64,000 bases of DNA from Candidatus Latescibacterota bacterium. GTDB taxonomy: Bacteria; Latescibacterota; UBA2968; UBA8231. Made by a program: the position numbers and the translations under genes. The notes under the pieces are model-generated. The model was given only the letters and a program-made list of their open reading frames with translations, was not told where the DNA came from and ran no database searches. Below, piece after piece: positions 25,399 through 50,814 of the stretch. Numbering within the stretch: position 1 is the first letter of the stretch; every line of letters begins with the position of its first letter. The stretch covers positions 256,001-320,000 of the forward strand of contig OZ220089.1 of assembly GCA_964291625.2 (NCBI GenBank). Direction: 5' to 3'.

Positions 25399-27113
<1,715 letters not shown>

Positions 27114-27114
<1 letters not shown>

Positions 27115-27158
27115 AAAGAACGCAAACGAGCCCGGCCGCAAGGCGCGGGCGGGCTCGT
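27114..27158 (-). terminator. Intrinsic terminator closing the minus-strand PorV-TPR-ExbBD-DUF4159 unit
   Basis: Stem ACGAGCCCG (27126-27134) / CGGGCTCGT (27150-27158), followed on the minus strand by TTGCGTTCTTTT. Confidence 0.6.
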
Positions 27159-27180
27159 CAGGCGGGACCGGCGGCTCCGG

Positions 27181-28521
27181 CTACTGGGCGTACTGACTGA
27201 CGTTGGCGATGCCGCCGGGCTGGGTCAGGGCGAAGACGATCAGGTTGACCCCGAACTGGAGGCCGCGCTCCCGGGCATCGGCATTCGGATCGCCCCAGAA
27301 CCAACTGATGTTGAGGTCGGAGAAGATCACGGCCACCCGGCCCCGAAGCTCGAGCATCTCGAGGTCGAAGACGTTGCCGCCGGGCGCTCCTCCCTTGGGA
27401 GGTCCGTCGCCGAAGTCGTAGAAGCTGGAGAACAGGGAGTGGTTCTTCTCGACCCGCTGCCACCGGGCGCCGTCGCCGGAGAGGACCTTCTCGTCCTTCA
27501 TGAGCGACTTGAACTGGCGGTCGAAGATGGTGCCCGCCGTGCCCGCCCCCGTGCCCTCCAGGCTGCCCTCCGAGTTGGCATGGCGGATCTCCTCCGCGAA
27601 GAGGAAGCCGCCCTGGCGGAGGTACTCTCCCAGGTTCTCCTTCTCCGTGGAGGAAAACTGGAAGATGGCGTTGTTCCCGGTCATGTAGAGGAACGGTTCC
27701 TTGAAGATCTGCGAGTCGCTCAGACGCAGCGTCACCCCCTCGATGCGGGCGTTGATGCGCGTATGGTCGCGCATGTAACGCATCAACTCCTCGACGGCGG
27801 TGGGGAAGCGGTCCGTGCTCTTGTTGGCCAGGTCGTAGTCCATGACGCTCATGTTGAAGAACCCGCGGATGTTGCGCTTGTTCTCCGGGTCCTGGATCAG
27901 GATCGCCTGGTAGCGGCCGAAGTCGAGATCCTGGACGTTGAGCAACTCCTGCTTCAGACTCAGGGCCTCCTGAACGGGGGCCGCCGTCTCCGTGAGCTCG
28001 ATCATCTCGACCTCGTCGAAGGCCAGATCCTCCGCCTTGGCCCCGGAGAACGCGCCCAGCACCTGGCTGCCGGGCAGCACCGCACCGAGGAGGTCGGAAC
28101 CGATGGCGCTCACGTCGGCGATGGCGGTGATGTCGGTGGGCAGATCCGGCGGCGACAGCGACGCCAGCATTTCCATCTGCACCTCCGAGATCTCGGGCTG
28201 CTTGGCCAGGTCGAAGTTCTTCTCGAGGATCGGCGGCGGCGCCTGGAAGCGGATCAGCTTCGCCTCCTCCTCGGTGACCTGCTGCTCGTAGTACCAAGCG
28301 ACGCCCCAGGCGACGGCCTCGATGACTATGGCCACCGCGAGACTCACGAACAGGGCCGCCCGCCGGCCCGCCGTGGCCCGCCAGAGGACGTAGACCAGCA
28401 CGGCACCAACGAGAGCGTTGAGCCCCAGCACCTGGGTCTTCGAGAAGAACCCGATGATGACGACATGAAGGAAGACAGCGATCCCGAAGGAGCCGTACAG
28501 TATCTTTCTACGCTCTTCCAC
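27181..28521 (-). CDS. DUF4159-domain protein with N-terminal membrane anchor (TonB-like His-containing TM) and extended linker
   Basis: SFGIAVFLHVVIIG; C-terminal PFLYMTG...FSSTEKENLGEYLRQGGFLFAE...HSLFSSFYDF...GRVAVIFS...GVNLIVFALT. Confidence 0.8.
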   Translation of the reverse strand: MEERRKILYGSFGIAVFLHVVIIGFFSKTQVLGLNALVGAVLVYVLWRATAGRRAALFVSLAVAIVIEAVAWGVAWYYEQQVTEEEAKLIRFQAPPPILEKNFDLAKQPEISEVQMEMLASLSPPDLPTDITAIADVSAIGSDLLGAVLPGSQVLGAFSGAKAEDLAFDEVEMIELTETAAPVQEALSLKQELLNVQDLDFGRYQAILIQDPENKRNIRGFFNMSVMDYDLANKSTDRFPTAVEELMRYMRDHTRINARIEGVTLRLSDSQIFKEPFLYMTGNNAIFQFSSTEKENLGEYLRQGGFLFAEEIRHANSEGSLEGTGAGTAGTIFDRQFKSLMKDEKVLSGDGARWQRVEKNHSLFSSFYDFGDGPPKGGAPGGNVFDLEMLELRGRVAVIFSDLNISWFWGDPNADARERGLQFGVNLIVFALTQPGGIANVSQYAQ

Positions 28522-28551
28522 TTTCCGTTCCCCGTGGCTTGTTCAACTGAT

Positions 28552-28575
28552 CCCCGCCGGCAAGGGCCGGCGGGG
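28552..28575. other. Perfect 10-bp hairpin between exbD and the DUF4159 gene (attenuator or mRNA stabiliser)
   Basis: CCCCGCCGGC-AAGG-GCCGGCGGGG. Confidence 0.55.
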
Positions 28576-28587
28576 CGTTGGGGTCGA

Positions 28588-28995
28588 CTACTTCCCTCTC
28601 TGCGGCTCCGTGGCGATGATCTGGTCGACCACCCCCACCTGACGAGCGATATCCATGATCTGCACGATCTGGCCATGGGTGGCGCGCTCGTCGCCCTGGA
28701 TGATGATCATCGTCGTGTTGTCCAGGATCTGACGCTTCTCCTGGATCCGGTCCTTCAGGTTGGCGAAGGTCACGGTCTGGTGATTCAGCTTCATGTTGCC
28801 GTCCTGATCGACGACGATGAACAGGTTCTCCTTCTCGGGCGCCTGCGCCTCCTCCGCCTCGGGCAGTTTGATGTCGAGACCCGGGGTGATGGCGAAGACC
28901 GCCGTCACCATGAAGAAGATCAGCAGCTGGAACACCACGTCGATCATCGGCGTAAGGTCCGGCTTCTCGTCGTAGCGCCTTTTTTCCTGTGCCAT
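28588..28995 (-). CDS. exbD: ExbD/TolR family protein
   Basis: DLTPMIDVVFQLLIFFMVT with the conserved TM Asp; IIIQGDERATHGQIVQIMD. Confidence 0.93.
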   Translation of the reverse strand: MAQEKRRYDEKPDLTPMIDVVFQLLIFFMVTAVFAITPGLDIKLPEAEEAQAPEKENLFIVVDQDGNMKLNHQTVTFANLKDRIQEKRQILDNTTMIIIQGDERATHGQIVQIMDIARQVGVVDQIIATEPQRGK

Positions 28996-29019
28996 TATTC
29001 GGCCTCCGAGCCCCCCCGG

Positions 29020-29670
29020 TTAGGCGGTCTGGCTCTGCCAGCGGCGCAGCAGGGCATCCACGAACCCGTGCCCGTAGGGCTCGAACTGGATACCCTTGCC
29101 CTCGGCGCGCTGTGCGAAATAGGTGTAGATGGCCAGCGAAGGCACGGCGATGACGAGACCGGTCACCGTCGTGATCAGCGCCTCGGAGATACCGGCGGCG
29201 ACGATCGTCGGCTCGCCCAGTCCCTTCTCGGCGATGCCCTCGAAGGCGCGGATCATTCCGTTCACCGTTCCCAGCAGGCCGAGGAGCACGACCGAGCTGG
29301 CGACGAACTGGATCACCGACAGGTAGCGCTCGAGGTAGCTGCTCGCGGCGCGCTCTACCGTGCCGTTCATCTCGGCGCGCATCTCCTCGATGCTGCGCTG
29401 CTCGCGGGAGAGGTGCTCGAAGCGCTCGATGCCCTCGGCGTAGACATCCCCCTCCAGACGGCCGATCTCCCTGCAGTACTCCTGGAGCTGGTCGAAGGAA
29501 GCCCCGGAGTCGATCCGGCCGGTGACGTCGTTGGTCACCTCGGACAGTTCATCCTCCGACCGCATCCGCGCGTAGGTGACGATGCGCTCGATGAAGAATC
29601 CGAGGGCCATGATCGACCACAAGCCGAGGGGCCACATGAACGGTCCACCATCCTGAAAGAACTCCAGCAT
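29020..29670 (-). CDS. exbB: MotA/TolQ/ExbB proton channel protein
   Basis: GGPFMWPL...IER; LLGLLGTVNGMIRAF; GISEALITTVTGLVIAVP; strong SD AAGGAGG. Confidence 0.93.
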   Translation of the reverse strand: MLEFFQDGGPFMWPLGLWSIMALGFFIERIVTYARMRSEDELSEVTNDVTGRIDSGASFDQLQEYCREIGRLEGDVYAEGIERFEHLSREQRSIEEMRAEMNGTVERAASSYLERYLSVIQFVASSVVLLGLLGTVNGMIRAFEGIAEKGLGEPTIVAAGISEALITTVTGLVIAVPSLAIYTYFAQRAEGKGIQFEPYGHGFVDALLRRWQSQTA

Positions 29671-29759
29671 GATCGCTGATCCTCCTTGAGTTAGGGCTCA
29701 GATCTCTCGGCCCGAATCACTGAGTAAAAGGTTCATTGCGATGCCATGGTTTCGGGTGC

Positions 29760-32700
29760 TCAGAGAACGCGCGCTTCCTCCAGCGCCTCCAACTGCTGCC
29801 TCGAGAAGTCCACCTGCGGCGAGAAGCGCTGGATGCTGCCGTACTTCTGGACCACCTGCTGGAACTCCTCGGCCGCTTTGCGGTACTCCTCGAGAGCCAT
29901 GTACGCCGAGGCGATGTTGACGGCTGCGTTGACCGCCTGGTCGCTGTCCGGAAAGCGCTCGATCACCTCCTTGAAGATCTCGATGGACTCCACGTACTGC
30001 TCGCCGTCGAACAAGGACTCGCCCGCGGCGTAGACGTTGTAGGCCTCGATCTCCGACAGGTGGCCGAGGAGGACGGACGCCTTGCGGCGCAGGGGCCGGT
30101 CCTTGGCTTTCAGACGCTGCTCGGGGAACATCTCCAGGAACTTCCGGTAGCTCGCCGAGGCGAGATCGTACTCCTTCTCGCCGTAGTAGTAGTCGCCCAG
30201 GGTGAATTGGCTGGCGGCGCCGAAATCGCCGTCGGGGTGCTCGGTGACGATCCGCTCGAAGAAGGGAAGGGCGTCGGCCTTGGTGTACTCCTCCCCCAGG
30301 TCGGAGAGGTGGATGATGGCCCACGCCTTGTTGTACAGGGCGTCGTCGACGACGTCCGACCGCGAATAGCGGCCCAGAACGGCGTCGTACTTGCGCATGG
30401 CCTCCCTGAAGATCCCCTTCTTGTTTTCCCGGGTCTCGCCCTGGGCCAGATTGAAGACCGCCTCCCCCGCCCGGAACAGGGACTGGGCCGCGAACTCGGA
30501 GCGCGGGAACTTCGAGGCGAGATCTTCGAAAGTCTTGCTGGACTCGCGCCACTTGCCCATGCGGTACTCGGCAAAAGCGGCGTAGTAGTAGGCGTAGACC
30601 ACCTTCTCGTCGTCGGGGTAGGCCGTGTAGTAGGTCCTGAAGGCCTCGGCCACGTAGGGCAGGTACTGCACGTTGCCGTCCCCCGACATCTTGTTGTATG
30701 CGGCTCCGATCTGGAACTGCGCGTTTCGCGCCCAGCCGATCTGCGGATAGTTGTCGACGATGGTCTGGTAGGTCTGGACCGCCTTCTCCAGGTCGCCGGA
30801 CCGGAACTGGCTGTTGCCCTGCACGAAGAGGGCGTTGGCAATGTCCTCCGCGTCGACGGCCAGATCGAGGAGCTGCTGCGAGGCCGCGACGCTCTGCTCG
30901 TATCGCCCGAGGCGGAAGTAGGCGCTGGCCATGCGGATCAGCACGCGCACCTTGTCCTCCTGCGTCGTCAGGCGCGCCAGCATGTCTTCGTAGGTGCGTA
31001 TCGCATCCTCCGGATCCTGCTTCTCCGCCATGGAGATCAGCTGCAGCTGGGCGTTGCGGGCCAGGGTCTCGTCGCCGGACTCGATCACCTGCGTCAACAG
31101 CTTCGTGGCCTCCGCGTCCTGCCCCTGCGCGGCGAAGGAGAGGGCCATGGCGAAGTTGACCTTCAGCGCCATGCTCTCGGCAAGGTCCTGATCCAGGAGC
31201 CACTGGTAGTCGGCCAGGGCCCTGGAGAACCGGTTGGCCTTGTGGTAAGCCAGGGCGCGGCCGTAGCGAACCTCCCGGATCACGCCCGACTCGGGGTATT
31301 CGTCGATGACCTTCGTGTATCGATTGATGGCGTCCACATAGTTGTCGTTGTTGAGATCGAGCTGGGCGATCTGGTAGTGGGCCTGGGCCTCCAGCGCCCG
31401 ATCGCCCGTGACGCCCTTCAGCAGTTGGTCGAGGACCCCGCGGCCCTCCTCGGAGCGGCCGGCGCCGATGTGGATGTTGGCCGCCTCGATCAGGGATGCC
31501 ACGTAGACCTCGCCGGCCTCGCGGCCGACGCGGGAGAAGGCGTCGATGGCGCCGTCCAGCTCACCCCTCTGCTTGTAGAGGAGCCCGAGGCCGTAGTTGG
31601 CATCGGCGGCATGGCGGGTCTCGCCGTAGTTGTCGGCGATGATGCGATAGGCCTCGATGGCCTCGTCGAAGCGCTGCTGCTCGGTGTTGACGCGGCCTAT
31701 CCGCAGCAGGCAGAGAGGCGCCTGATCGGACCGTGGGAAGCTCTCCACCACCTGTCCGTAGACATCCAGGGCGGTCTCGTAGTCCTCCAGCTTCTCGGAG
31801 GACCAGCCGGCGCTGTACAGGGCGTTGGCCCGCAGGCCGGTTTCGCTGTCGGGATAGAGGGTGGCGACGGCGGAGTACTCCTGGCGGGCCTCTTCGAAGT
31901 CCCCTGCGAAGTAGCGGGCCTCGCCCTTGTTGTACTGGGCGATGGGCGGGTACGGCGTGTCTCCGTAGAGTTCGATCACCTGGTTGTAGGTGGTGTAGGC
32001 CTCTTCGAAACGCTCCTGTTTCTGTGCCGGCTCCTCGGAGCGCTGGCCCCACTCCATGAAGTTGTCGCCGAGGCGCATCTGCACCTTGGCCTTGTAGAAC
32101 CGCTCCTCCGCAGTCTCCTGGGCCGTTATCAGCTCCTCGTAAGCCTCCTCGAAGGCGCCCCCCCGCCGATAGATCTCGGCGACGCGAAGAGAGGAGGTCT
32201 CGAAGAGCTGCCGGTAGTTGTCGAAGTCGACGTTCTTGCCCTCCCGGAAGGAGCCGCGGAGCAACTCGTACATCCGGTCGTAGAGATCGCGAACCTCCCG
32301 GTAGCCGGCGATCGCCTCCTCGCTGCGCCCCATCTGGTCGAAGGCCTGCGCCTTGAGATAGGTGGCCTGGGCGATGACGGGACTGCTGGGGTAGACCTCG
32401 AGGACGACCTCGGCCTCCTCGACGGCCATCTCGTACTCCTCCTTCTCGTAGTAGGAGGAGGCGATCCGGAACTGCGAGTCGGAGGCGTAACGATCGTCGG
32501 GATAGGCCTCCAGCATGCCCCGAAGCGCGGTGATGGCGTCGTCGTAGCGCTCGAGGTTGAACAGGCTCCAGCCCGAGTAGAAGTACGCCTCCCCCGCCAG
32601 GTCGGAGCTGGGGAAGAGGTCGGCGTAGCGCTTGTACTCCTCGGCGGCCTTGTCAAACTCCTTCTGCAGGAAGCGCGTCTCCGCCACGCGGAACTGCACG

Positions 32701-33053
32701 AGGGACCGGAAGTCCTCGTCCACCTCCTCCATGGCGATCACCTCGCGGAAGGCTCCCACCGCCTCCTCGTGCTGGCCGCTGCGCATGCGGGCGTTGCCCA
32801 GCTGGTACCAGGCCGCCGCCATCACCGGCAGCTCGAGGTCGTCGCCGAAGGTGACGCGCACGCTGTCGGTGCGCACGGCGGGGCTGTCGAACTTGACGAT
32901 CTTCGAGTACTCGAGGATCGCCCCCTCGTACTCGCCCAGGGCGTAGAGGCTCTGGCCGGCGTCGAAGTTCGTCTTCAGCGTCTGCGGCACCGGGAGGAAC
33001 AGGCTGGTGCCCACCCCCAGCCCCAGTGCGATCAGCCCGATCCAGATCGTCAT
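29760..33053 (-). CDS. Large (1097 aa) membrane-anchored TPR protein (BamD/YbgF-like repeats)
   Basis: N-terminal hydrophobic helix; many TPR units with YPxS linkers. Confidence 0.9.
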   Translation of the reverse strand: MTIWIGLIALGLGVGTSLFLPVPQTLKTNFDAGQSLYALGEYEGAILEYSKIVKFDSPAVRTDSVRVTFGDDLELPVMAAAWYQLGNARMRSGQHEEAVGAFREVIAMEEVDEDFRSLVQFRVAETRFLQKEFDKAAEEYKRYADLFPSSDLAGEAYFYSGWSLFNLERYDDAITALRGMLEAYPDDRYASDSQFRIASSYYEKEEYEMAVEEAEVVLEVYPSSPVIAQATYLKAQAFDQMGRSEEAIAGYREVRDLYDRMYELLRGSFREGKNVDFDNYRQLFETSSLRVAEIYRRGGAFEEAYEELITAQETAEERFYKAKVQMRLGDNFMEWGQRSEEPAQKQERFEEAYTTYNQVIELYGDTPYPPIAQYNKGEARYFAGDFEEARQEYSAVATLYPDSETGLRANALYSAGWSSEKLEDYETALDVYGQVVESFPRSDQAPLCLLRIGRVNTEQQRFDEAIEAYRIIADNYGETRHAADANYGLGLLYKQRGELDGAIDAFSRVGREAGEVYVASLIEAANIHIGAGRSEEGRGVLDQLLKGVTGDRALEAQAHYQIAQLDLNNDNYVDAINRYTKVIDEYPESGVIREVRYGRALAYHKANRFSRALADYQWLLDQDLAESMALKVNFAMALSFAAQGQDAEATKLLTQVIESGDETLARNAQLQLISMAEKQDPEDAIRTYEDMLARLTTQEDKVRVLIRMASAYFRLGRYEQSVAASQQLLDLAVDAEDIANALFVQGNSQFRSGDLEKAVQTYQTIVDNYPQIGWARNAQFQIGAAYNKMSGDGNVQYLPYVAEAFRTYYTAYPDDEKVVYAYYYAAFAEYRMGKWRESSKTFEDLASKFPRSEFAAQSLFRAGEAVFNLAQGETRENKKGIFREAMRKYDAVLGRYSRSDVVDDALYNKAWAIIHLSDLGEEYTKADALPFFERIVTEHPDGDFGAASQFTLGDYYYGEKEYDLASASYRKFLEMFPEQRLKAKDRPLRRKASVLLGHLSEIEAYNVYAAGESLFDGEQYVESIEIFKEVIERFPDSDQAVNAAVNIASAYMALEEYRKAAEEFQQVVQKYGSIQRFSPQVDFSRQQLEALEEARVL

Positions 33054-33071
33054 GGAAGGAGTCTCCTCTTC

Positions 33072-33998
33072 CTACAGTTGCCAGGCCAGGGAGAACCGGT
33101 GGGAGCCGTTGGCCTCGGACAGTTCGAGGGGGATGTGGTAGCCGTAGTCGAAGAGCATCTTGTTCCAGCGGTACCCCAGACCCGCGTTCAGGTCGCCCTT
33201 GGCGTCCTCTTCGAAGGCCCGGCTGCCGCCGGCGCGAAGCATCAGGCCCTCCACCAGGCTCGTCTCCCCGCCCAGCACCAGACGGCTCTCCGAACCATCG
33301 CCCCCCAAGTCCCGAACCGACCACTGAACCGAAAGCAGCATCTGGTCCCGGCGGTGGCTCACCCCCACCGACAGGTCCATCGGAAGGTCCCCCGCCCCCG
33401 ACTCCAGGGAGCCGCCGCAGTCGCAGGTGGCGTTCGGCTGAAGGACGTTCTGCAGTTGAACCCCCAGACGGGCCCCCTGAAACGGCGTCCGCCACAGAAG
33501 ACCCACGTCGGCGCCCACCGAACCCGCGCTCTGACCCGACACCGGGTCGTTGCTGTCGAAGTCCGACACCTGCCAGAACACGTACTTGCCCGTCAGGCCC
33601 AACTGGAGGTCCCGGCTCAGGCGATAGCCCACGCCCAGAAACGCCCCGTTCTCCGACATCTGCTCCGAGCCGATGCGCTCGTAGCCTACCCCCAGCGCCA
33701 GACGGCCGCCCAGGGGCTGCGTCAGAGACACCACGTGCTGGCCGAGGTCGTCCTCCTCCAGACCCGAGTGCAGAAGCGACACGTTGGTGTACGCCAGCTG
33801 ACGCCCCGTCAAGGTCGCCAGACCCGCCGGGTTGGCGAACATCGCATCGCCGTTGTCGGCCACCGCCACGAAGGCGTTGCCCAGCGACGCCGACCGGGCG
33901 CCGGCCCCGAGATTCTGGATGTTCACCACCGCTTCCGAACCCGTCACAAGGGACAGTACGAAAGCGAGGGACACGGTGATGGTGATCCGGCTTGCCAT
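33072..33998 (-). CDS. PorV/PorQ-family (FadL-like) outer-membrane beta-barrel
   Basis: SD AAGGAGG; signal peptide; GAGARSASLGNAFVAVADNGDAMFANPAGLA hatch motif; amphipathic strands; ends HRFSLAWQL. Confidence 0.8.
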   Translation of the reverse strand: MASRITITVSLAFVLSLVTGSEAVVNIQNLGAGARSASLGNAFVAVADNGDAMFANPAGLATLTGRQLAYTNVSLLHSGLEEDDLGQHVVSLTQPLGGRLALGVGYERIGSEQMSENGAFLGVGYRLSRDLQLGLTGKYVFWQVSDFDSNDPVSGQSAGSVGADVGLLWRTPFQGARLGVQLQNVLQPNATCDCGGSLESGAGDLPMDLSVGVSHRRDQMLLSVQWSVRDLGGDGSESRLVLGGETSLVEGLMLRAGGSRAFEEDAKGDLNAGLGYRWNKMLFDYGYHIPLELSEANGSHRFSLAWQL

Positions 33999-34051
33999 TT
34001 TAGGCTCCTCCTTGCTGGCCGCCCGCGTCTCCCGCGGGCCTGGGCGAGACA

Positions 34052-34804
34052 TCAGCCGGCCGTCTCGAGCTCGAGACGACCGTCGCGGAAGATCCGGCCG
34101 ATGTCGCGCTGGAATCGGCAGTTGATCCGTACCGTCTCCACGGGCTCGTTGCGGTGGTCGAACCGCAACACGGCGTCGTGGATGACGACTTCGACTTCGC
34201 TCACGTCGTGGTGGAGAGCGGGGAAGATGAGGAACCCCTCCACCTCCTGGCCGACGAAGACCTCCTCGTTCTTGTAGAGCGTTCGCCGCAGCAGATCGAG
34301 GCGCTCCTGGTACCGGGCGTACTCGTTGCCGCGGAAGCCGGTGGCGTAGGCCCGGTAATAGGTGTCGAGTTGCTGCAGCTGCAGGCTCCAGTACTCCGAG
34401 CCGCTCCCCGAGCGCAGGACGATGCGCGCGGGATCGATCTTGACCTTGGGATAGCGGTGGTTGGCGACCCGGAGGTGGAAGGTGGTGAACCGGGAGCGCT
34501 CGGCGTCGCCCTCCCAGAAGCGGGTGTCGCCGAAGGTGTAGGGGTTGGTCGACTGCGGACCGGAGACCGAATGGGGGAGGAACTGGCGGTTGAGATCGTC
34601 ATCTGTGAGGGCCTGAAGCTCGACTCGGAAATCCCCTTGGACGAAGGCGACGCCGCCTTGATCCGCCACCGTGCTCCCCAGCGGCTGCTGCAGGGAAGGC
34701 TGCAGGGGGCTGGCGTAATGATAGTAACCGCAGCCGGAGGCGCCACACAACCCCAGCAAGGCCGTAAGCCAGAGCGCACGTCGAAAGCGGGGGCATGGAA
34801 TCAT
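34052..34804 (-). CDS. Hypothetical lipoprotein
   Basis: Signal LWLTALLGLCGASGC; globular beta-rich body; NPYTFGD. Confidence 0.7.
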   Translation of the reverse strand: MIPCPRFRRALWLTALLGLCGASGCGYYHYASPLQPSLQQPLGSTVADQGGVAFVQGDFRVELQALTDDDLNRQFLPHSVSGPQSTNPYTFGDTRFWEGDAERSRFTTFHLRVANHRYPKVKIDPARIVLRSGSGSEYWSLQLQQLDTYYRAYATGFRGNEYARYQERLDLLRRTLYKNEEVFVGQEVEGFLIFPALHHDVSEVEVVIHDAVLRFDHRNEPVETVRINCRFQRDIGRIFRDGRLELETAG

Positions 34805-34837
34805 CGGCTGTCCGCGGAGTCCTCTCGGTCGAGGGCC

Positions 34838-35725
34838 TTAATATAGTGTTTCGGGCGCGGCAAATGTAGATTTTATCCGGCCCCAGGTCGAGGACCGGAC
34901 GAGGGTGGGGACCATGGGCGCCAGCCTGAGGTCGGTGAAGCGGTCGGCCAGCCGGAAGGCGTTGTATCCGCCGGAGAGGGACCACTTGGCGTCGAGCAGC
35001 TCCGAGTGCTCGTCGTAGTCGGCGAACTCCAGGTTGAACCCGATGACGTCGCCGGCGGCCAGCAGCCGGCGGCGGCTGAGGAAGTCGGCCGTCATGTCGA
35101 CCTCGTCGAAGACGGCCAGACTGAACTCGTAGCTGACGACGGCCGGCCCCCCCTCGGAGCCCTCCACGGCCATCGCCGCCCGGGTATACGCTCCGTCGGG
35201 CTCGGAGTACCATGCGGCGGCGGAGAAGTTCACGAGAAAGTCCCCGTCCTCGTGAGGCCCTGCCAGCACGAAGTGGCTCGCCTGGGCGCCGTTGCGCTCG
35301 AGCTGCTCGCTCTGGCTCAGGTCGCTGAAGTCGGCGTACTGGCCTCCGGAGTGGTCGCCGTCGACGAAGATCTCCAGATCGTCGTCCTGGAAGATGCGGG
35401 TGGTGGCCGTCCCTTGGGGGCGGTCGACCTGGTGGATGTCGTCGCGGACCTGGGCGGCGAGGTAGATCCGATTGGTGTGCGGGCTCCAGCCGATCCATAC
35501 CAGGATGTCCAGATCCTCGGCGTCGGCAGGAGCTTCATCCACGAGATCGACGAAGTCCTCCGTCGTCAGCGTCGCCCGGCCGGCCTGCGCCCAGTCCCCC
35601 AGCTGGCCGTCCACCTCGGGGGCCGCGCCCTCCGGGAACTGGAGGGCCGCCACCTCCCGGCCTTCGGGCAGGTGGCCGCTGGCCGACGACGCGGCCAGCA
35701 GGACGGCCAGACAGAGGGCTCGCAT
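34838..35725 (-). CDS. Secreted CBM9-like (sugar-binding/DOMON-like) protein with C-terminal TWGRIK motif
   Basis: Signal MRALCLAVLLAASSASG; PEVDGQLGDW, IYLAAQVRDD, DDLEIFVDGD, YEFSL, GDVIGFNL; ends SSTWGRIKSTF. An alternative start lies at 35761. Confidence 0.75.
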   Translation of the reverse strand: MRALCLAVLLAASSASGHLPEGREVAALQFPEGAAPEVDGQLGDWAQAGRATLTTEDFVDLVDEAPADAEDLDILVWIGWSPHTNRIYLAAQVRDDIHQVDRPQGTATTRIFQDDDLEIFVDGDHSGGQYADFSDLSQSEQLERNGAQASHFVLAGPHEDGDFLVNFSAAAWYSEPDGAYTRAAMAVEGSEGGPAVVSYEFSLAVFDEVDMTADFLSRRRLLAAGDVIGFNLEFADYDEHSELLDAKWSLSGGYNAFRLADRFTDLRLAPMVPTLVRSSTWGRIKSTFAAPETLY

Positions 35726-35967: not shown

Positions 35968-37452
35968 ATGATTCGACGATCGATCCTCCCCCTGGCGCTG
36001 GCGCTCTGCCTGGGGTGCGGCCCCTCGCCGCAGCCGCCCGCAGAAGCCGCCGCCGCCGAGCGCCACCTGGCGGAGGGCCGCTACGGCGAGGCCCTGGCAC
36101 TCCTGCGGCAGCAGCTCGCGTCGGGGGACCTCCCTCGAGTGCACGCCGGCCTCGGGAACGCTCATGCCCGCCTCGGGCGCCTGGACTCCGCCGCCGCCCA
36201 CTACCAGGCCAGCCTCTCCCTCGATCCGCGGCCGGTGGAGGTCCACCACAACCTCGGCGTCGTGCTGGCCGACCTCGGGCGCTTCGACGAAGCCGTGGCC
36301 GCCCTCGAGCGCGCCGTCGACCTGGACCCTGGATTCGCGCCCTCCCACCTGACCCTCGGGCTCTTCCGCAGCAAGGTCGGCGACTACAAGGGCGCCGAAG
36401 CCGCTTTCCGAGCGGCCGCCGATGCCGGAGACCCTTCCGCGCACCGGCACCTCGGCGGGCTCTACGTCCGGCTCGGCCGCTACGACGAAGCCGACCGCGC
36501 CTTGGAGCAGGCCCTGAAGGCGAACCCCCGCGACGCCGAGAGCCACCGCCTGCGGGCGGTCTCGCTGCGGTCCCGCGGCGACCTGGAGGGGGCCGCGGCC
36601 TCCTTCTCGCGCGCCGTGGAGCTGGCCCCCGACGACCACGAGGCGCTCTTCGGCCTGGCCAACGTGAGGATCGCCTCGGGCGACACCGAGGGCGGCCGTC
36701 GCCTGCTGGAACGGTACGAGCAGCTGCGCCAGGGCGCCGGCGAGGTCGAGCACCTGCGCCGCCTCCTGGATGGGCGCCCCGGGGACGTGGAGGCGCGGAT
36801 GGCCCTCGCCGGGAGGCTCCTGCGGGACGGCCTCGAGCCGGAGGCGGCGAGACAGTACGAGGTGGTGCTGGCCTACGACGCCGGGCAGGTCGAGGCGCGG
36901 CTGCGCCTCGGGCAGCTGTACCGAGACCGGGGGGACACGCTCCGGGCCCTCCAGGCGCTGTCCGCCGCCCCCGTCGAGGACGCGCGCCTGGCCTTCTTCC
37001 TCGGCTCCCTGCAGCTGATGCACGGCGACCTGGAGGCGGGCGCCGCCACCCTCGAGCGCGCCGCTGTCCTGGACCCCGGCCGCGGGGAGGTCCTGAACAA
37101 CCTCGGCAACGTCCGCCTGATGCAGGGGAACCCCGAGGCGGCGGCCGCCGCCTTCCGCCGGGCCCTCGCCGCTGCCGCGCCGTCGGCGCAGGCCGCCCTC
37201 AACCTGGGAACCCTCTGGGTCCAGGCCGGGCGAGAGGACAGCGCCGCCGCCTGCTACCGGCTGGCCCTGGGAATCGACCCGGACCTGGCCGCCGCCCATC
37301 TCGCCCTCGCCCGCCTGCACGACCGCGGCGGCCGCCGCGGCGAGGCCGCCGCCTCGTACGAACGTCTGCTCGCGGCCTCCCCGGACCCGGCCCTGCGGGA
37401 GGAGGCCCGCGTATACCTCCGCCGCTGGAGAGAGCGGTCCGGGGGCGGCTGA
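35968..37452 (+). CDS. TPR-repeat lipoprotein
   Basis: Lipobox LALCLGC; repeated HNLG/NNLG TPR units. Confidence 0.88.
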   Translation: MIRRSILPLALALCLGCGPSPQPPAEAAAAERHLAEGRYGEALALLRQQLASGDLPRVHAGLGNAHARLGRLDSAAAHYQASLSLDPRPVEVHHNLGVVLADLGRFDEAVAALERAVDLDPGFAPSHLTLGLFRSKVGDYKGAEAAFRAAADAGDPSAHRHLGGLYVRLGRYDEADRALEQALKANPRDAESHRLRAVSLRSRGDLEGAAASFSRAVELAPDDHEALFGLANVRIASGDTEGGRRLLERYEQLRQGAGEVEHLRRLLDGRPGDVEARMALAGRLLRDGLEPEAARQYEVVLAYDAGQVEARLRLGQLYRDRGDTLRALQALSAAPVEDARLAFFLGSLQLMHGDLEAGAATLERAAVLDPGRGEVLNNLGNVRLMQGNPEAAAAAFRRALAAAAPSAQAALNLGTLWVQAGREDSAAACYRLALGIDPDLAAAHLALARLHDRGGRRGEAAASYERLLAASPDPALREEARVYLRRWRERSGGG

Positions 37453-37459
37453 CGCTGAC

Positions 37460-39196
37460 GTGACACCCTGGACCCTCGTGGCCCTGGCCGCCGCCCTGGC
37501 GGGCTGCCGGCCGGAGGCGCCCCCCGGGGCCGCCGGGCCCGCGGAGGGGCCGCCGCCCGCGGGATTCGCCGTCCGCTTCGTCGACGCGGCCGCCGAGGTC
37601 GGCCTCGACGCCGCCCACGTGAGCGGCTTCAGCGAGGCGCGGTTCTTCCCCGAGACCATGGGCGGCGGCGGCCTGTTGTGGGACTACGACCGCGACGGCT
37701 GGCTGGACGTGTACCTCGTCAACGGCAGACCCCTCGCCCCCGGCGACGACGGCCCCCCCGTCGGCAACCGGCTGTTCCGCGGCCTCGGGGACGGCACCTT
37801 CGCGGAGACGACCTCCGCGGCGGGTGTGGGCCACCGGGGCTACGGCAACGGCTGCGTCGCCGGCGATCTCGACGGCGACGGCGACGGCGATCTCTACGTC
37901 ACCAACTACGGCGCCGATGTGCTCTTCCGGAACGACGACGGCGCCTTTGGCGACATCACCCTCGCCGCCGGCCTCGGAGACCCGGGCTGGGGCACGGGGT
38001 GCGCCGTCCTCGATCACGACCTCGACGGCGACCTGGACCTCTACGTGGCGCGCTACGTCGACTACGAGCTGGCCGACGCCGCGACGGAGACGGTCCCGTA
38101 CCTCTCCCGCTCCGAGGGCGCCGGACCGGGAGGGCCGGGATACCCCCATCCCGACAACTTCGACGGCCTCGGCGACCTGCTGCTGCGCAACGACGGCGGC
38201 CCGGGTCCGGTCTTCACCGACGTGTCGGCCGCCGCCGGCGTCCACCTGGCCGGCGGCAAGGGCCTGGGCGTGGTCACCGCGGACGTGGACGGCGACGGCT
38301 GGACGGACCTGTACGTGGCCAACGACGCGACGCCGAACTACCTCTTCATCAATCGCCGGGACGGGACCTTCGAGGAGCGGGCCGCCCGCTCCGGGGTCGC
38401 CTACGGCGAGAGCGGCCTGCCGGAGGCGGGCATGGGGGTCGACGCCGCCGACTACGACGGCGACGGCCGCCTCGACCTCACGGTGACCAACTTCCAGGGA
38501 GAGCCGAACAGCCTCTTCCGCAACCAGGGGGACGGGTCCTACTTCCTGCCCGAGGCGTACGCCTCGGGCACCGGCGCCGTCACGGTCCCCGCCCTGGCCT
38601 TCGGCACCAACTGGGTCGACGTGGACGGCGACGGCCGGCTGGACCTGTTCGCGGCCAACGGCCACGTCCTCGACAACGTGCGCTCCTTCGACCGCTCGAC
38701 GACCTACCGCCAGCGCAACTTCCTGTTTCACAACCGCGGGCCGGGGGCCTACGGCAACACCCTCTTCGCCGACGTCACCTCCATCGCCGGCCCGGGCCTG
38801 GCCCAGGAGCGCGTGAGCCGCGGCTCGGCCGCCGGCGACCTGGACAACGACGGCGACCCGGACCTCCTGGTGATCAACCTCGGGGACCGGGTGTCGTTGC
38901 TGCGCAACGAGGGCGGCAACGGCAACGGCTGGCTGTCGGTGCGCCTGCGGCGGGCCTCCTCCGGCGGCGGCGAGGGCGCCCGGCTGCGACTGCACTCGCC
39001 GTCGGGAACACAGTGGCGGGAGGTCAGCAGCGGCCGCAGCTACCTGTCCCAGAGCGATCCCCGGGTGCTCTTCGGCCTCGGGCCGGACAGCCGGGTGGAC
39101 AGCCTGGAGGTCTGGTGGCCGGGCGGGGCCCGCGAGGTCTACCGGGACCTGGAGGCGGGCCGGTTCCTCGACCTGGTCGAGAACGGGGCCCGCTGA
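37460..39196 (+). CDS. CRTAC1-family lipoprotein (FG-GAP repeats plus ASPIC/UnbV)
   Basis: Lipobox LAGC; ETMGGGG...DYDRDGWLDVY; multiple DxDGDGxxD; SYLSQSDPRVLFGLG. Confidence 0.9.
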   Translation: MTPWTLVALAAALAGCRPEAPPGAAGPAEGPPPAGFAVRFVDAAAEVGLDAAHVSGFSEARFFPETMGGGGLLWDYDRDGWLDVYLVNGRPLAPGDDGPPVGNRLFRGLGDGTFAETTSAAGVGHRGYGNGCVAGDLDGDGDGDLYVTNYGADVLFRNDDGAFGDITLAAGLGDPGWGTGCAVLDHDLDGDLDLYVARYVDYELADAATETVPYLSRSEGAGPGGPGYPHPDNFDGLGDLLLRNDGGPGPVFTDVSAAAGVHLAGGKGLGVVTADVDGDGWTDLYVANDATPNYLFINRRDGTFEERAARSGVAYGESGLPEAGMGVDAADYDGDGRLDLTVTNFQGEPNSLFRNQGDGSYFLPEAYASGTGAVTVPALAFGTNWVDVDGDGRLDLFAANGHVLDNVRSFDRSTTYRQRNFLFHNRGPGAYGNTLFADVTSIAGPGLAQERVSRGSAAGDLDNDGDPDLLVINLGDRVSLLRNEGGNGNGWLSVRLRRASSGGGEGARLRLHSPSGTQWREVSSGRSYLSQSDPRVLFGLGPDSRVDSLEVWWPGGAREVYRDLEAGRFLDLVENGAR

Positions 39197-41841: not shown

Positions 41842-43785
41842 TCAGTAGGCCACGGCGAGAACGCCGTGGTGGTCCTCGGCAAAGGCGTCGGCGTCGATCC
41901 GCAGGCGCCAGATATAGGTGCCCGGCGCCAGGGGGCGGCCGTCGGCGCCGCGGCCGTCCCACAGGTATTCCGAGGGCCCCAGGCCGTGGAGCCCGAGGTC
42001 GGCGTGGGCCACGCGCCGGCCGGAGAGATCGAAGAGCTCGAAGCGCACCGGGGCCCTGTCGGTCAGTTGCAGCAGGTTGAACTGCACCCGCAGTCCGTCG
42101 TTGAGGCCGTCTCCGTTGGGCGTCACCACCCGGGTGGAGAGGGCGATCTGTCCCACGAGGCGGCCGATCTGCTCCTCCGGGATGGCCACGAAGAGACCGG
42201 ACAGCTCGTCGTGGTCGCCGGGCCCGAAGTCGGCGGCATCGCCGCCCTCGAGGGGCTGGGGCACGGAGGGATAGCGGCTGTTGATGGCGCGGCCCGAGAA
42301 CGTGGTCCCGAAGCGGAACACCGGCAGATCGAAGGTGAACTCGAGGACGTCCCCCGCCCCGGAGATGAGGGGCAGGCCGATGCGGAAGGCGTCGTGCCTC
42401 GAGAACAGGACCTCCGCCTCCAGGGCCTCGCCGTTCAACCGCACCTCGCGCACCCGCTCCATGGGGACCGTCGTGTCCACCTCGAGCTGGTCGAAGCCGA
42501 GGACCGCTCCCGCCCGGCCCACGCGGACGGCGTAGCGGAAGCTGGCCGGCTCCTCGACCTGCGCGAGTCGCGGATAGACCTCCGCCCGCAGGGTGTCGGC
42601 GATCGGCGGCCTCAGATAGGGGAAGGAGATGCTGTCCACCTGCCGGGTGTCGAAGAGGCGGCCGGCGAACTCCAGCCGGAACTGCACCCAGCGGCGCGGG
42701 ATCGGGGCGGTGACCGGCGCCCCGAGGGCCGCCGACTTCCAGGGGCTCCAGCTGTCGACGTCCTCGACCACCCCGGCGCGGTCCTGGGACTCGAGGTCCC
42801 GGTACTCCTCCGGGGTGATCTCGGCGAGGATGGTGCTCTCCGGATCCTCCGGGTCGGGCACGCGGCGCCGGAAGACCAGCGGCGTGTCGTCGTTGCCCGT
42901 GCGCACTCGCACCCTCATCTCGGAGAACGCGGGCGGCCCGGCGATCTCCTCCACCCAGCGCAGCGGCCCGATGGAGGCCCGCCCCCCGAGGTCGATCAGG
43001 TCCGAGTAGTAGACCCCTCCGTCCAGGTACCCGGTGCCGTAGACCTCCAGCTCGTCCACCTCGAAGGGCCGCTCGCTCAGGGAGCGCAGCTTCACCTGGC
43101 GCACGTAGCGCGGGTCCACGCGCACGTCGACGACGGGGTCGGTGTTGTTGGTGACCCGCTCCACGAGGATGTCCGGACTGCCGGCGGCGCGATCCGTCTG
43201 CCGCGGGTTGATCCACACCTCGTAGGCGCGCAGGTAGTCGTCGTGGAAGGGCGTCTCCGGCGTGGCCGCGACGGTGTTGCGCGGATAGAAGCGGATGCGC
43301 TCGACCCCCACCTGGCGCCCGAAGTCGAGCCACACCCAGATCCCGAAACTGGTCAGGGTCGGCTCGAGGAGGGTCGGCTTGCGCTCGAAGGCCACGGTGT
43401 GGTCGCCGTTCACCAGCCCCTCCAGCTGCCTGCGCACCAGGGCGGAGGGCCGGCCGATGGAGTTCGGCGCCCGGATGCGGCCGCCCCTCTCGAGGACGAG
43501 GCCGGCGATGTTGGTCTCGCCGTCGTAGTACCGGGGGCTGATCCAGCCCGGGCGATGGTCGAACTCGATGTCGGCGCCGGGGGCGTTCCCCGTGTCGAGG
43601 ACCGCCCGGACGCCGGACTTCACCAGGTGGACGGGGTCTCCCCGGCCGCCCCCTTCGGCCCAGGAACGGCCGCCGTCCCCGAGGGTGTAGCGGCCGAGCT
43701 GGGCCCCGGCGCCGTCGGCGCAGGCCAGGACCGCCAGGGCGAGGGCCGCGGCGCCGGCCCGCCGGGTGCGGAGGCCGCGGCTCAC
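41842..43785 (-). CDS. Secreted protein (~647 aa): discoidin-like domain plus C-terminal FlgD-Ig / T9SS type-B CTD-like domain
   Basis: GTG at 43785; signal ending GAGAQ; WLDFGRQVGVERIRFYPR; VTPNGDGLND...LFDLSGRRV...WDGRGADGRPLAPGTYI; ends AVAY. Confidence 0.8.
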   Translation of the reverse strand: MSRGLRTRRAGAAALALAVLACADGAGAQLGRYTLGDGGRSWAEGGGRGDPVHLVKSGVRAVLDTGNAPGADIEFDHRPGWISPRYYDGETNIAGLVLERGGRIRAPNSIGRPSALVRRQLEGLVNGDHTVAFERKPTLLEPTLTSFGIWVWLDFGRQVGVERIRFYPRNTVAATPETPFHDDYLRAYEVWINPRQTDRAAGSPDILVERVTNNTDPVVDVRVDPRYVRQVKLRSLSERPFEVDELEVYGTGYLDGGVYYSDLIDLGGRASIGPLRWVEEIAGPPAFSEMRVRVRTGNDDTPLVFRRRVPDPEDPESTILAEITPEEYRDLESQDRAGVVEDVDSWSPWKSAALGAPVTAPIPRRWVQFRLEFAGRLFDTRQVDSISFPYLRPPIADTLRAEVYPRLAQVEEPASFRYAVRVGRAGAVLGFDQLEVDTTVPMERVREVRLNGEALEAEVLFSRHDAFRIGLPLISGAGDVLEFTFDLPVFRFGTTFSGRAINSRYPSVPQPLEGGDAADFGPGDHDELSGLFVAIPEEQIGRLVGQIALSTRVVTPNGDGLNDGLRVQFNLLQLTDRAPVRFELFDLSGRRVAHADLGLHGLGPSEYLWDGRGADGRPLAPGTYIWRLRIDADAFAEDHHGVLAVAY

Positions 43786-46499
43786 TGCAGCCCCGCGTTC
43801 ATGCTCACGAAGAGCAGCGACGAGCGTTCGGCCGGTCCCGACTCCGGGGCGCGGTCTCCTACCTGGATGCCGCCGCGCGTGACCAGCTGGTAGCCCTGGT
43901 AGCCGACCCGGTTGATCACCTGCACGATCAGGGTTCGGGCCGTGAAGCCGCTGTCGAGCTCCCGGCGCTCCCCCTCCAGCAGCCAGCCCCGGGTCCACTC
44001 CAGGCCGAGCTGCAGCTCGGTGTCGAAGAGTTGCTTACCGTAGCGGGCGTAGTAGTTGACGCTGGTCAGCTCGGAGAGCAGCGGCTGCCGCCACATGAGG
44101 AAGAGGGACTCCTCCAGGCTGCGGGCCGGGGGCCGCCGGGCGTCGTAGGGGCGGTCGGCGCGGTACTCGCTCTTCCAGCGCGGCTCCAGCAGTCCCCGGC
44201 CCACCGGGATCGACCACTCGGCCCGGTTGATCAGGCCCAGGAACCCCGACCTCACCCGCCTCTCCTCCAGGCGCACCTCGTCCTCGTCCCGGCGCTGCCG
44301 GAAGGTCTCCCACTTGAACCGGTGGAAGAGGCGCACGCCCCGTCCCGGCCGCTGATCGAGGTCGGCGTAGAAGGTGTTGCGCCAGGTGTCCCGGGAGGGC
44401 AGCAGGTCCCGGTCGTCCTCCATGCGCCCCGTCGAGCCGCTCGGCTGCACCCAGGTCTGCAGATGATCGGGGATGTCGTCGCGCACCGAGGCGCCGAAGT
44501 CGAAGAGGCGGAGGCGGGAGCGCCCCAGGCGCCCGGTCCAGGCGAGCATGGCGTACCACGACTCCGTCCTGCCGTCGCCGGAGATCAGGCGCATGCGCTG
44601 GCGGCCGGCCACGAGGCGGGCGTCGGGGGTGACGAAGAGCTTGCCGTGGAGGTTGAAGCCGCGGTGGTCGCGCCGGTAGGGGTAGTCGGCATGCAGGTCG
44701 TTCTCGAAGGGGTCGGCGGTGCCGTTGTGGTTCATGTCGACGCCGAAGAGGAACTCGGGCCGGTCCGACCGGAAGCGCAGGAAGGGCTCCTCGTAGTCGG
44801 GAACCAGGTTGCGGTTGTAGTTGAGGGAGACCGCCACCGGCTCTCCCGGCCGCGCGAAGGCCCCTGCCGGGCGGCGGGTGTTGTTCTGGTTGTAGTCGTA
44901 GATGTAGTCGCGGTTGAAGTCGACGCCGGGGAAGGCGATCCCGCCCGAACCGGTCTGCCACGGCCGCGACCACTCGGGGACGGCGTCGTGGTCGTCGTCG
45001 TCGTCGACCAGCTCGTAGAGCATGGGCACGGGGGCCTTGTACTGGATCAGGCCGTTGCCGAGGGTCAGCCAGTGGTTGGTGCTGTAGGCGTCGTCCATGG
45101 AGAACGTCTCCAGGAACAGGCCCCACGGATAGAGGTTCCAGGCGGCGATGCCGTAGGCGGCCCAGGCGGTGCGCACCATCTCGTGGTGCCGGCTCAGCCG
45201 CGGATTGGGATACCTCCGGTGCTGGCGGTTGAGGACCGTCTCCCCCTGCACCGACAGACCGTGCCAGTCCACCAGGTCCCAGTCGAAGCCGACCAGCTCG
45301 TTGGCCGTGGGCAGGCCGTAGTCGAGGAGCAGGACGCGGCCGTTGCTCTCGTCCCGGACGTTGCCCGCCGCCCGCGCGTAGGGGAGGAAGACCGTCTCCG
45401 GGTTGCGCAGGCCGTCCGTCTGGAGATTCGAGGCGAGCTCGATCCGGTAGTCGTTGGCCACGGCCAGCTCCACGGCGGCCGCCGTCAGCGCCCTCGGGTC
45501 GAGGCCGAGCTCGTGCAGGCCCCCCAGGTCGTACTCCAGGAGCAGGCGCTCCGACCCGTCCACCACCAGGGCGCCTTCGCGCAGGCGCCCTCCCTCGATC
45601 AACGGAAGGAGGCCGAGGTCCCGGCCGCTGATGCGCACCCCGTTGGTGTCGGTGAAGACGATGTCGTGGCGGAAGACCCGGGCGCCGCCGACCCCGTCCG
45701 CCGGCGAGTCGTCCCGGACCTGCACCCAGAGCTTGTCCGGGGTACGGTTCTGATTGCTGGTGAGCACGCCGGCCAGCGGGTTGCCGGCCCGGAACTCCGG
45801 CTCGGTGTTGGAGTTGTGCAGGTTCACGTAGGTCAGCCCGAAGCTGCCGGCCGCGAAGGGGACGTAGCCCAGCCGGCCGCCCATCAGGTGGGTCACGTTC
45901 CGGCGGGGGCCGGTGGGCTGGCTCGGCCGGGAGAGGAGCAGGGTGCTCTCGAGCCGGTCCCTGGCATAGTCGAGGCGCACCCCCTCGAAGCGGGGCTTGC
46001 GCAAGGTCAGGGGCGTGAGCTGCGCGTCGAGGACACTGCCCATCATGAGGCGGTAGGTCTCCCCGCCCCGCCGGTCCGAGGCGATGGCGAGCCCCTGGAA
46101 GGCTCCCGGGAACTGAGGCCACAGGATGTCCGAGCCCTCCCGCGACGGCTGCACCTGCTCCCAGGAGTAGACCAGCCAGCCGCGGCCCAGGTGCTCGCCG
46201 AAGGAGTCGTACCACTCCTCCCCCGCCAGGAACGGGTCCAGGTAGCGCAGGTAGCGGTCGCGGGCGTAGTTGGCGCCGGTTTCGTACCAGTGGGCGGCGT
46301 AGGTCCCGGCCAGGCTTCGGGAGGCGTACCACTTGTGCAGGGCCGGAGTCGTGTAGTCCACCTCGAAGCGCGGGGACAGGTCGGCCAAGGCCCGCGTGGG
46401 GTGACTCTGTCCCTCCACCAGGGGCGGGAAGCCCCCGGCCAGGAGCAGGGCCGCCCACAGGGCCGCACGGGGCCCCCGACCGGTCGCCGGAGCGGGCAT
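43782..46499 (-). CDS. Hypothetical exported, putative outer-membrane protein (905 aa), paralog B
   Basis: Signal peptide; shares PAL(R/H)KWY, NYAR, RGWLVY, TP(M/L)T, VANDYRI, DYG(M/L)PT and EEPFLR with paralog A. Confidence 0.7.
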   Translation of the reverse strand: MPAPATGRGPRAALWAALLLAGGFPPLVEGQSHPTRALADLSPRFEVDYTTPALHKWYASRSLAGTYAAHWYETGANYARDRYLRYLDPFLAGEEWYDSFGEHLGRGWLVYSWEQVQPSREGSDILWPQFPGAFQGLAIASDRRGGETYRLMMGSVLDAQLTPLTLRKPRFEGVRLDYARDRLESTLLLSRPSQPTGPRRNVTHLMGGRLGYVPFAAGSFGLTYVNLHNSNTEPEFRAGNPLAGVLTSNQNRTPDKLWVQVRDDSPADGVGGARVFRHDIVFTDTNGVRISGRDLGLLPLIEGGRLREGALVVDGSERLLLEYDLGGLHELGLDPRALTAAAVELAVANDYRIELASNLQTDGLRNPETVFLPYARAAGNVRDESNGRVLLLDYGLPTANELVGFDWDLVDWHGLSVQGETVLNRQHRRYPNPRLSRHHEMVRTAWAAYGIAAWNLYPWGLFLETFSMDDAYSTNHWLTLGNGLIQYKAPVPMLYELVDDDDDHDAVPEWSRPWQTGSGGIAFPGVDFNRDYIYDYNQNNTRRPAGAFARPGEPVAVSLNYNRNLVPDYEEPFLRFRSDRPEFLFGVDMNHNGTADPFENDLHADYPYRRDHRGFNLHGKLFVTPDARLVAGRQRMRLISGDGRTESWYAMLAWTGRLGRSRLRLFDFGASVRDDIPDHLQTWVQPSGSTGRMEDDRDLLPSRDTWRNTFYADLDQRPGRGVRLFHRFKWETFRQRRDEDEVRLEERRVRSGFLGLINRAEWSIPVGRGLLEPRWKSEYRADRPYDARRPPARSLEESLFLMWRQPLLSELTSVNYYARYGKQLFDTELQLGLEWTRGWLLEGERRELDSGFTARTLIVQVINRVGYQGYQLVTRGGIQVGDRAPESGPAERSSLLFVSMNAGLQ

Positions 46500-50813: not shown

Positions 50814-50814
50814 C

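Follow-up and report, generated by a model that had tools for sequence, protein, structure and literature searches.

The window analysed here is a 64,000-nucleotide stretch of a Candidatus Latescibacterota genome (contig OZ220089.1, C1:256001-320000 in our numbering); positions below count from its first letter unless C1 or C2 is given. On its minus strand, at 27181-35725, lie seven co-directional genes which on balance probably encode a Ton/Tol-like envelope module that draws its energy from the proton-motive force, with an ExbB/ExbD stator, a DUF4159 protein as force transducer and a PorV-family barrel as outer end. The window belongs to a 5.9-Mb assembly in two contigs (genome G000; completeness 95%, contamination 6.6%), and the stretch is present in RNA and DNA runs from sponge and marine metagenomes. 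The G+C content is 63-68% in the operon and 68-76% in its flanks.

The open reading frames (ORFs) and the domain searches agree on the gene order of the initial annotation, which had been made from the letters and the ORFs. Read along the minus strand, and separated by gaps of 0-89 nt, the genes encode a CBM9-like secreted protein (34838..35725; the ORF is open to 36100 and its start was set at the signal-peptide Met), a 250-aa lipoprotein that we call Lipo250 (34052..34804), a divergent PorV/PorQ-family barrel of 326 aa (33072..34052, with a probable start at Met19, position 33998), a tetratricopeptide-repeat (TPR) protein of 1097 aa (29760..33053), an ExbB/TolQ-type stator subunit of 216 aa (29020..29670), an ExbD/TolR-type stator subunit of 135 aa present as a single copy (28588..28995) and a DUF4159 protein of 446 aa, the candidate force transducer (27181..28521). 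Searches with Pfam and NCBIfam matched none of the seven proteins to a family of TonB_C, Plug, TolB, Pal or Gld, which bears out the description of an operon devoid of TonB-dependent receptor, tolB/pal and gldKLMN. RNA folding reveals a terminator-like hairpin with a U-rich tail (27112..27159, minus strand), the hairpin itself (~27125-27159) folding at -33.8 kcal/mol (z -3.06, equalled by 1 of 200 shuffles) ahead of a U-rich run; a scan for consensus terminators found none at the operon 3' end.

We surveyed synteny at 74 public loci whose DUF4159 match is at least 45% identical, counting for each gene the loci with enough upstream DNA. ExbD was present in 63/71 of these, ExbB in 62/66 and the TPR gene in 46/48; the PorV-like barrel followed with 37/41, the lipoprotein gene with 30/38 and the CBM9-like gene, upstream, with 30/37. 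ExbB is 73-100% identical across the orthologous loci. Three of the synteny misses correspond to short, C-terminal-only DUF4159 paralogues (L103, L105 and L106) and others to diverged motors, the L074-type loci holding ExbB and two ExbD in the same slot (Pfam). This survey confirms that the gene run is real, conserved and syntenic in most of the 74 related loci. Orthologues were found in the families f6, f9, f11, f12 and f13 of the phylum at E values of 1e-116 to 1e-138; since they reach other families, the operon is old.

The DUF4159 protein scores 97.1 bits with PF13709, for a cut-off of 25.9. Its AlphaFold model, built on a 28-row alignment (mean predicted local distance difference test, pLDDT, 66.8), displays three membrane helices (residues 2-25, 28-49 and 54-81), a disordered stretch of ~125 residues (82-206) and a confident alpha/beta head (207-441). 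The head superposes well on PDB 4i66, a solved DUF4159 member (VIA Z 22.0, root-mean-square deviation 2.0 over 187 residues; Foldseek E 8e-12, TMt 0.82), and the next-best structural matches are class-I glutamine-amidotransferase (GATase1)-like folds (Z 7-9.3). Entries with the vWA (von Willebrand factor A) domain are absent among the 50 structure matches listed for the head and among the Foldseek matches listed, and the Pfam search of the operon found no TonB_C (PF03544) in this protein. Charged residues are distributed around the helices as RRK before helix 1, GRR before helix 3 and an acidic stretch after helix 3, a distribution that would place the head in the periplasm. Thus, in the expression "TonB-like DUF4159" used by the initial annotation, the likeness holds for the architecture (anchor, linker and predicted periplasmic head) and fails for the head, which is GATase1-like and not TonB_C. 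Among 28 relatives no Cys is invariant, so that an amidotransferase-type nucleophile appears unlikely; the GATase1-like head is probably non-catalytic.

Distant orthologues and paralogues of the DUF4159 protein possess a single helix, which corresponds to helix 3 of the window copy. This anchor helix carries a His in 20 of the 28 aligned relatives, and in 15 of them the His is accompanied by a Ser four residues earlier. A conserved stretch lies just past the anchor: P97 and F103 are invariant among the 28 relatives and F92 is found in at least 90% of them. A "motor box" sits at the matching position of TonB and TolA, as described in the sections on these proteins in Williams-Jones et al. (2025, Mol Biol Evol 42:msaf138, PMC12204202). 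As the groups of our transducer tree were defined from the same gene context that they display, their split shows only that the window-type proteins form one old paralogue group. In the literature searched, DUF4159 was mentioned solely in a Pfam database paper. Short DUF4159 proteins of ~300 aa, 45-55% identical to the window head, are encoded outside the operon in many f1 genomes (e.g. at L103, L105 and L106); none was seen at this level of identity in the window genome.

The two motor proteins are firmly assigned at the level of the broad families (PF01618, 86.7 bits for ExbB; PF02472, 100.2 bits for ExbD), and score below every cut-off with the equivalog models exbB, ExbD, tolQ and tolR; the best NCBIfam models for ExbB are tolQ (77.9 bits) and exbB (59 bits), each below its own cut-off. 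The membrane helix of ExbD carries an Asp, D19, which we take to be equivalent to D25 of E. coli ExbD. The TPR protein begins with a hydrophobic anchor or signal and matches TPR_6 (238.9 bits) along with many further TPR families (Pfam). It also matches the CpoB/YbgF model over 9 stretches (290.5 bits) and the PorW/SprE model at 93.3 bits, below the cut-off of 250.

The barrel aligns over almost its entire length (positions 3-325 of 326) with the PorV/PorQ family model NF033709, at 84.4 bits (E 1.1e-23; 78.7 bits when the genome was searched in six frames), just below the 90-bit cut-off. It is far from the equivalog models of PorV (24.7 bits, cut-off 250) and PorQ (31.3 bits, cut-off 220), and is a protein distinct from the genome's PorU-linked PorV, with which it shares 28% identity (E 1e-9). 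Pfam gave no match to FadL (Toluene_X). Searched by itself against the PDB sequences, the barrel returned nothing at E <= 1, and a 16-row barrel profile returned no outer-membrane barrel chain but two unrelated rows (E 0.57-0.88). A second copy of the barrel, 92.6-97% identical, lies away from the operon (C2:448672-449604, L014), alone among cytidylate-kinase-like, GFO/IDH/MocA oxidoreductase and sugar-acid genes; it looks like a recent duplication.

The lipoprotein has its lipobox Cys at residue 25 and belongs to no family of Pfam or NCBIfam. Its model (pLDDT 85.7) is a beta-sandwich with inserted helices, for which fold matches are weak (MPT63/YjhA-like, best E 1.6e-3). A protein atlas interrogated with two queries, one being the lipoprotein, returned Latescibacterota clusters only, and for the lipoprotein also a weak DUF4352 lead (score 0.84). 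The CBM9-like protein scores 20-21.2 bits with Pfam CBM9_1, under the cut-off of 23.4; a PDB sequence search gave a single row (E 0.6), and tblastn located 21 further places in the genome.

The operon is not isolated in its genome. Six full-length, membrane-anchored DUF4159 proteins define six paralogous cassettes, in all of which a ~1085-aa TPR protein and a member of the Lipo250 family accompany DUF4159. ExbB/ExbD genes are adjacent or within ~8 kb in 4/6 cassettes; among the five cassettes other than that of the window, two have ExbB-ExbD-ExbD inside the cluster and a third has it ~8 kb off. None of these five contains a PorV-like gene. At the head of four of the five stand two or three genes of F3, a family of 22 unnamed proteins of 900-1050 aa, and in the window cassette the CBM9-like, lipoprotein and PorV-like genes occupy the position held elsewhere by F3. 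The same replacement is seen within the window-type transducer group: in the early-branching L096 and L098, an F3-family protein of ~875 aa precedes the TPR gene and there is no PorV-like barrel. Taken together, the slot of L096 and L098 and the sister cassettes indicate that the outer-membrane partner is exchangeable around a constant core made of the TPR protein, the motor and DUF4159. The sister cassettes' proteins of the families F3, F8 and F9 have no family in NCBIfam, and the F9-family proteins give weak DUF5683 Pfam matches only.

Other genes accompany these cassettes. The sister cassettes L010 (C2:58908-60251) and L009 (C1:4434069-4435712) include a DUF4340 protein (145.7 bits), a SurA-like protein with a double peptidyl-prolyl isomerase domain and small DUF5683-like membrane proteins. 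A TPR lipoprotein and FG-GAP/ASPIC (UnbV) pair flanks the window cassette at 35968-37452 and 37460-39196 on the plus strand, and also at 25789-27114; these two families flank the genome cassettes A and C too.

As to how the motor is coupled, what the head targets, and which material is moved or assembled and in which direction, we infer the following from this arrangement. ExbB and ExbD would constitute the inner-membrane stator. The 446-aa protein would be the analogue of TonB/TolA, anchored beside the stator, its linker of ~125 residues crossing the periplasm with the DUF4159 head at the end. The head may there engage the outer-membrane end of the module, namely the PorV-family barrel, the beta-sandwich lipoprotein and the CBM9-like secreted protein, and the 1097-aa TPR protein would scaffold the assembly. 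The outer-membrane partner would vary from cassette to cassette, a PorV-like barrel in the window and F3-family proteins elsewhere. What the module energises is most likely a step of outer-membrane capture or transport, or of surface assembly.

Several points weigh against this proposal. The window copy of the DUF4159 protein has Glu68 and Ala64 where its relatives have His and Ser, and thus does not carry the Ser-x3-His motif. A Glu occupies the anchor position in the window copy and three close relatives, and a Leu in one more, these five proteins forming one subclade. Coupling to the motor in the manner of TonB is therefore not supported by the motif of the window copy itself. Owing to its two extra N-terminal helices, the protein could be a polytopic partner and not a transducer. 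The operon holds no identifiable substrate or cargo gene, and DUF4159 is a domain of unknown function. On the side of the proposal, contigs from RNA libraries of 3 studies cover the operon, one of 4577 nt spanning 27181-31759 (DUF4159, ExbD, ExbB and into the TPR gene) and a second spanning 32164-33966; these are compatible with expression of the operon, but RNA-library contigs can contain DNA and give no proof of a single transcript.

Among known systems, the closest printed description is that of the non-TonB force transducers. In the sections of PMC12204202 that deal with them, these are proteins of unknown function that resemble TolA/TonB and combine a membrane helix and a linker with a non-TonB (vWA) head; in several phyla their genes follow those for TPR, tolQ and tolR. 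The window protein shares with them a membrane helix, a disordered linker and a globular non-TonB head, as well as a gene placed directly after those of the TPR protein and of the tolQ/tolR-like motor; most of its relatives also have the His anchor motif. It differs from what those sections describe by its DUF4159, GATase1-like head (no vWA among the 50 matches listed), by a single ExbD in place of their heterologous pair, by the loss of the anchor His in the window copy, and by its occurrence in Latescibacterota with attached genes for a PorV-family barrel, a lipoprotein and a CBM9-like protein.

With the Ton system the operon has in common the ExbB/ExbD stator, a gene directly downstream for an anchored protein that spans the periplasm, and an outer-membrane barrel as presumed target. 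It lacks TonB_C, a Plug receptor and, in the window copy, the Ser-x3-His motif. The genome, moreover, keeps a separate canonical TPR-ExbB-ExbD-TonB set, a single one and outside the operon, and 24 Plug receptor matches, none of them near any cassette. It counts 7 ExbB genes for only 2 TonB_C matches. ExbB/ExbD sets also occur at C1:29882-31012 and C2:15105-17049 with neither TonB_C nor DUF4159 adjoining; in one of the two, a 724-aa protein without family comes next.

A part in the T9SS (type IX secretion system) is the rival that best survives the comparison. According to it, the module would power or assist a PorV-type shuttle for part of the cargo bearing the secretion C-terminal domain (CTD), in a phylum without GldKLMN; we hold this to be unlikely. 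The operon resembles the T9SS by its PorV/PorQ-family barrel, maintained at most loci (37/41) and joined at locus L093 by a second one downstream, and by a proton-driven motor, GldLM and ExbBD reportedly sharing a 5:2 build. A system to be powered is also at hand. The genome encodes SprA (606.4 bits), PorU (571.3 bits) and an adjacent PorV-family protein (241 bits), all outside the operon, and has 102 CTD matches (TIGR04183). The missing motor is the other argument: GldL, GldM (three models) and GldN gave no match genome-wide (TIGR03513, TIGR03517, PF12081, PF12080 and TIGR03523) and the best GldK-like match is far below the cut-off (138.7 bits vs 350), in searches without positive control since none of the control genomes carries Gld families. 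This part of the initial annotation holds.

The distribution across the phylum does not follow. We profiled 151 Latescibacterota genomes grouped by family, a membrane-anchored DUF4159 protein being called present at E <= 1e-18. SprA passes its cut-off in 145/151 genomes, GldL in 0/151, and CTD tails occur in 151/151, but the membrane-anchored DUF4159 protein is found in 92/151. It is absent from f2 (0/30), f4 (0/19), f3 (0/2) and f8 (0/5), and all these 56 genomes are SprA-positive. Representatives of the same four families have 1-3 ExbB homologues each, at most 38% identical to the window ExbB, and no orthologue of it. The initial annotation had set such a profile as the test that could refute an ExbBD-driven T9SS, and its outcome speaks against a core role in the T9SS. 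The cassette-bearing lineages do tend to more CTD candidates (24-182 in f1 against 8-32 in f2/f4), although f8, without the cassette, still has 36-101; these are rough first-look numbers, at most 35 CTD being scored per genome, and the comparison counts related genomes which are not independent samples.

The components of the window point in the same direction. The barrel scores below the cut-off of the PorV family and differs from the copy linked to PorU, no Gld protein is encoded in the operon, and F3-family proteins fill the barrel slot in L096, L098 and the other cassettes. TIGR04183 found no CTD in the whole window, the operon included. As for the CTD-bearing proteins that the initial annotation had placed nearby, two proteins 6-15 kb from the operon, at 41842-43998 and 49002-50858 on the minus strand, match FlgD_ig/CHU_C weakly at their C-terminal ends (27.7 and 26.8 bits, and 22.4 and 20.3 bits, respectively), which can be counted in favour of a T9SS link. 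Both are part of a neighbouring cluster that includes an F3-family gene (43782-46499), and together with it resemble a type-B-CTD-like cargo cluster.

Because 56 SprA-positive genomes dispense with the DUF4159 protein and F3 replaces the barrel in two loci, the cassette is unlikely to be the core motor of the T9SS, and an accessory role in cargo-rich lineages is conceivable. The boldest form of the idea, to which we attach a rather low probability, is that ExbBD motors, DUF4159 transducers and TPR scaffolds took over the energising or shuttle role of the T9SS in CTD-rich lineages devoid of GldKLMN, the operon being the version with a PorV-type carrier. If true, the T9SS would have a second 5:2 motor that was recruited independently. 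PorU and PorV are in any case confirmed in the window genome, and SprA and CTD tails phylum-wide; in the literature searched, we found no paper linking type IX secretion with Latescibacterota.

It is still less probable that the module substitutes for Tol-Pal, tethering or stabilising the outer membrane, e.g. at division, with the TPR protein in a CpoB-like role. No TolB passes the cut-off genome-wide (best 123.8 bits vs 343), the motor scores best with the NCBIfam models tolQ and tolR, if below their cut-offs, and the TPR protein has 9 stretches that match the CpoB/YbgF model; in Bacteroidetes, the tol-pal locus is given as not identified in the part of PMC12204202 concerned. Any long TPR array would, however, give matches to the CpoB model. 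The operon has no OmpA-like, peptidoglycan-binding domain (Pfam, NCBIfam; Pal was not searched genome-wide), and the presence of six cassettes per genome together with total loss in four SprA-positive families is a poor fit to a housekeeping function. The preferred reading is that of a Ton/Tol-like module with an exchangeable outer-membrane partner.

A surface transport of the Myxococcus Agl-Glt/Nfs kind, in which a TolQR-type motor drives TPR proteins, a TonB-like anchor and barrels so as to move surface material, seems very improbable: the parts list (TolQR-type motor, giant TPR protein, TonB-like anchored protein, outer-membrane proteins, multiple paralogous copies) equals that of the Glt "core complex" (aglRQS with gltD, a 1191-aa TPR protein, gltE, gltG, which is TonB-like, and gltC), reported as multi-copy in non-gliding bacteria including Fibrobacter in the sections of Luciano et al. 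(2011, PMC3169522) on this complex, and F. succinogenes has a cluster of similar parts up-regulated on cellulose (OmpA-TPR-TPR-ExbB-ExbD-ExbD-TonB, FSU_2396-2403; PMC6851124), but no Glt-specific family matched the operon proteins (Pfam, NCBIfam), GltG carries TonB_C (PMC3169522) where the window head is DUF4159, and the likeness is one of composition.

What the analysis adds is the census of six cassettes, an outer-membrane slot whose occupant can be exchanged, a window copy that has lost the anchor His, and the phylum-wide profile of SprA without GldL. To our knowledge, ExbB/TolQ-type motors have only three firm jobs: import through TonB receptors, Tol-Pal maintenance, and gliding and spore-coat transport in myxobacteria. 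To these motors the cassette adds a conserved, expressed-looking and multiply duplicated variant, the arm of which ends in an unstudied domain and the outer-membrane partner of which can be a small barrel of the PorV/FadL type or an unnamed protein of very large size. A question comes with it, namely what powers the T9SS in a whole phylum that has SprA, CTD proteins (up to ~100 per genome) and no detectable GldLM. Whether a hidden GldLM or a different motor does so, either answer would inform how outer-membrane work is powered.

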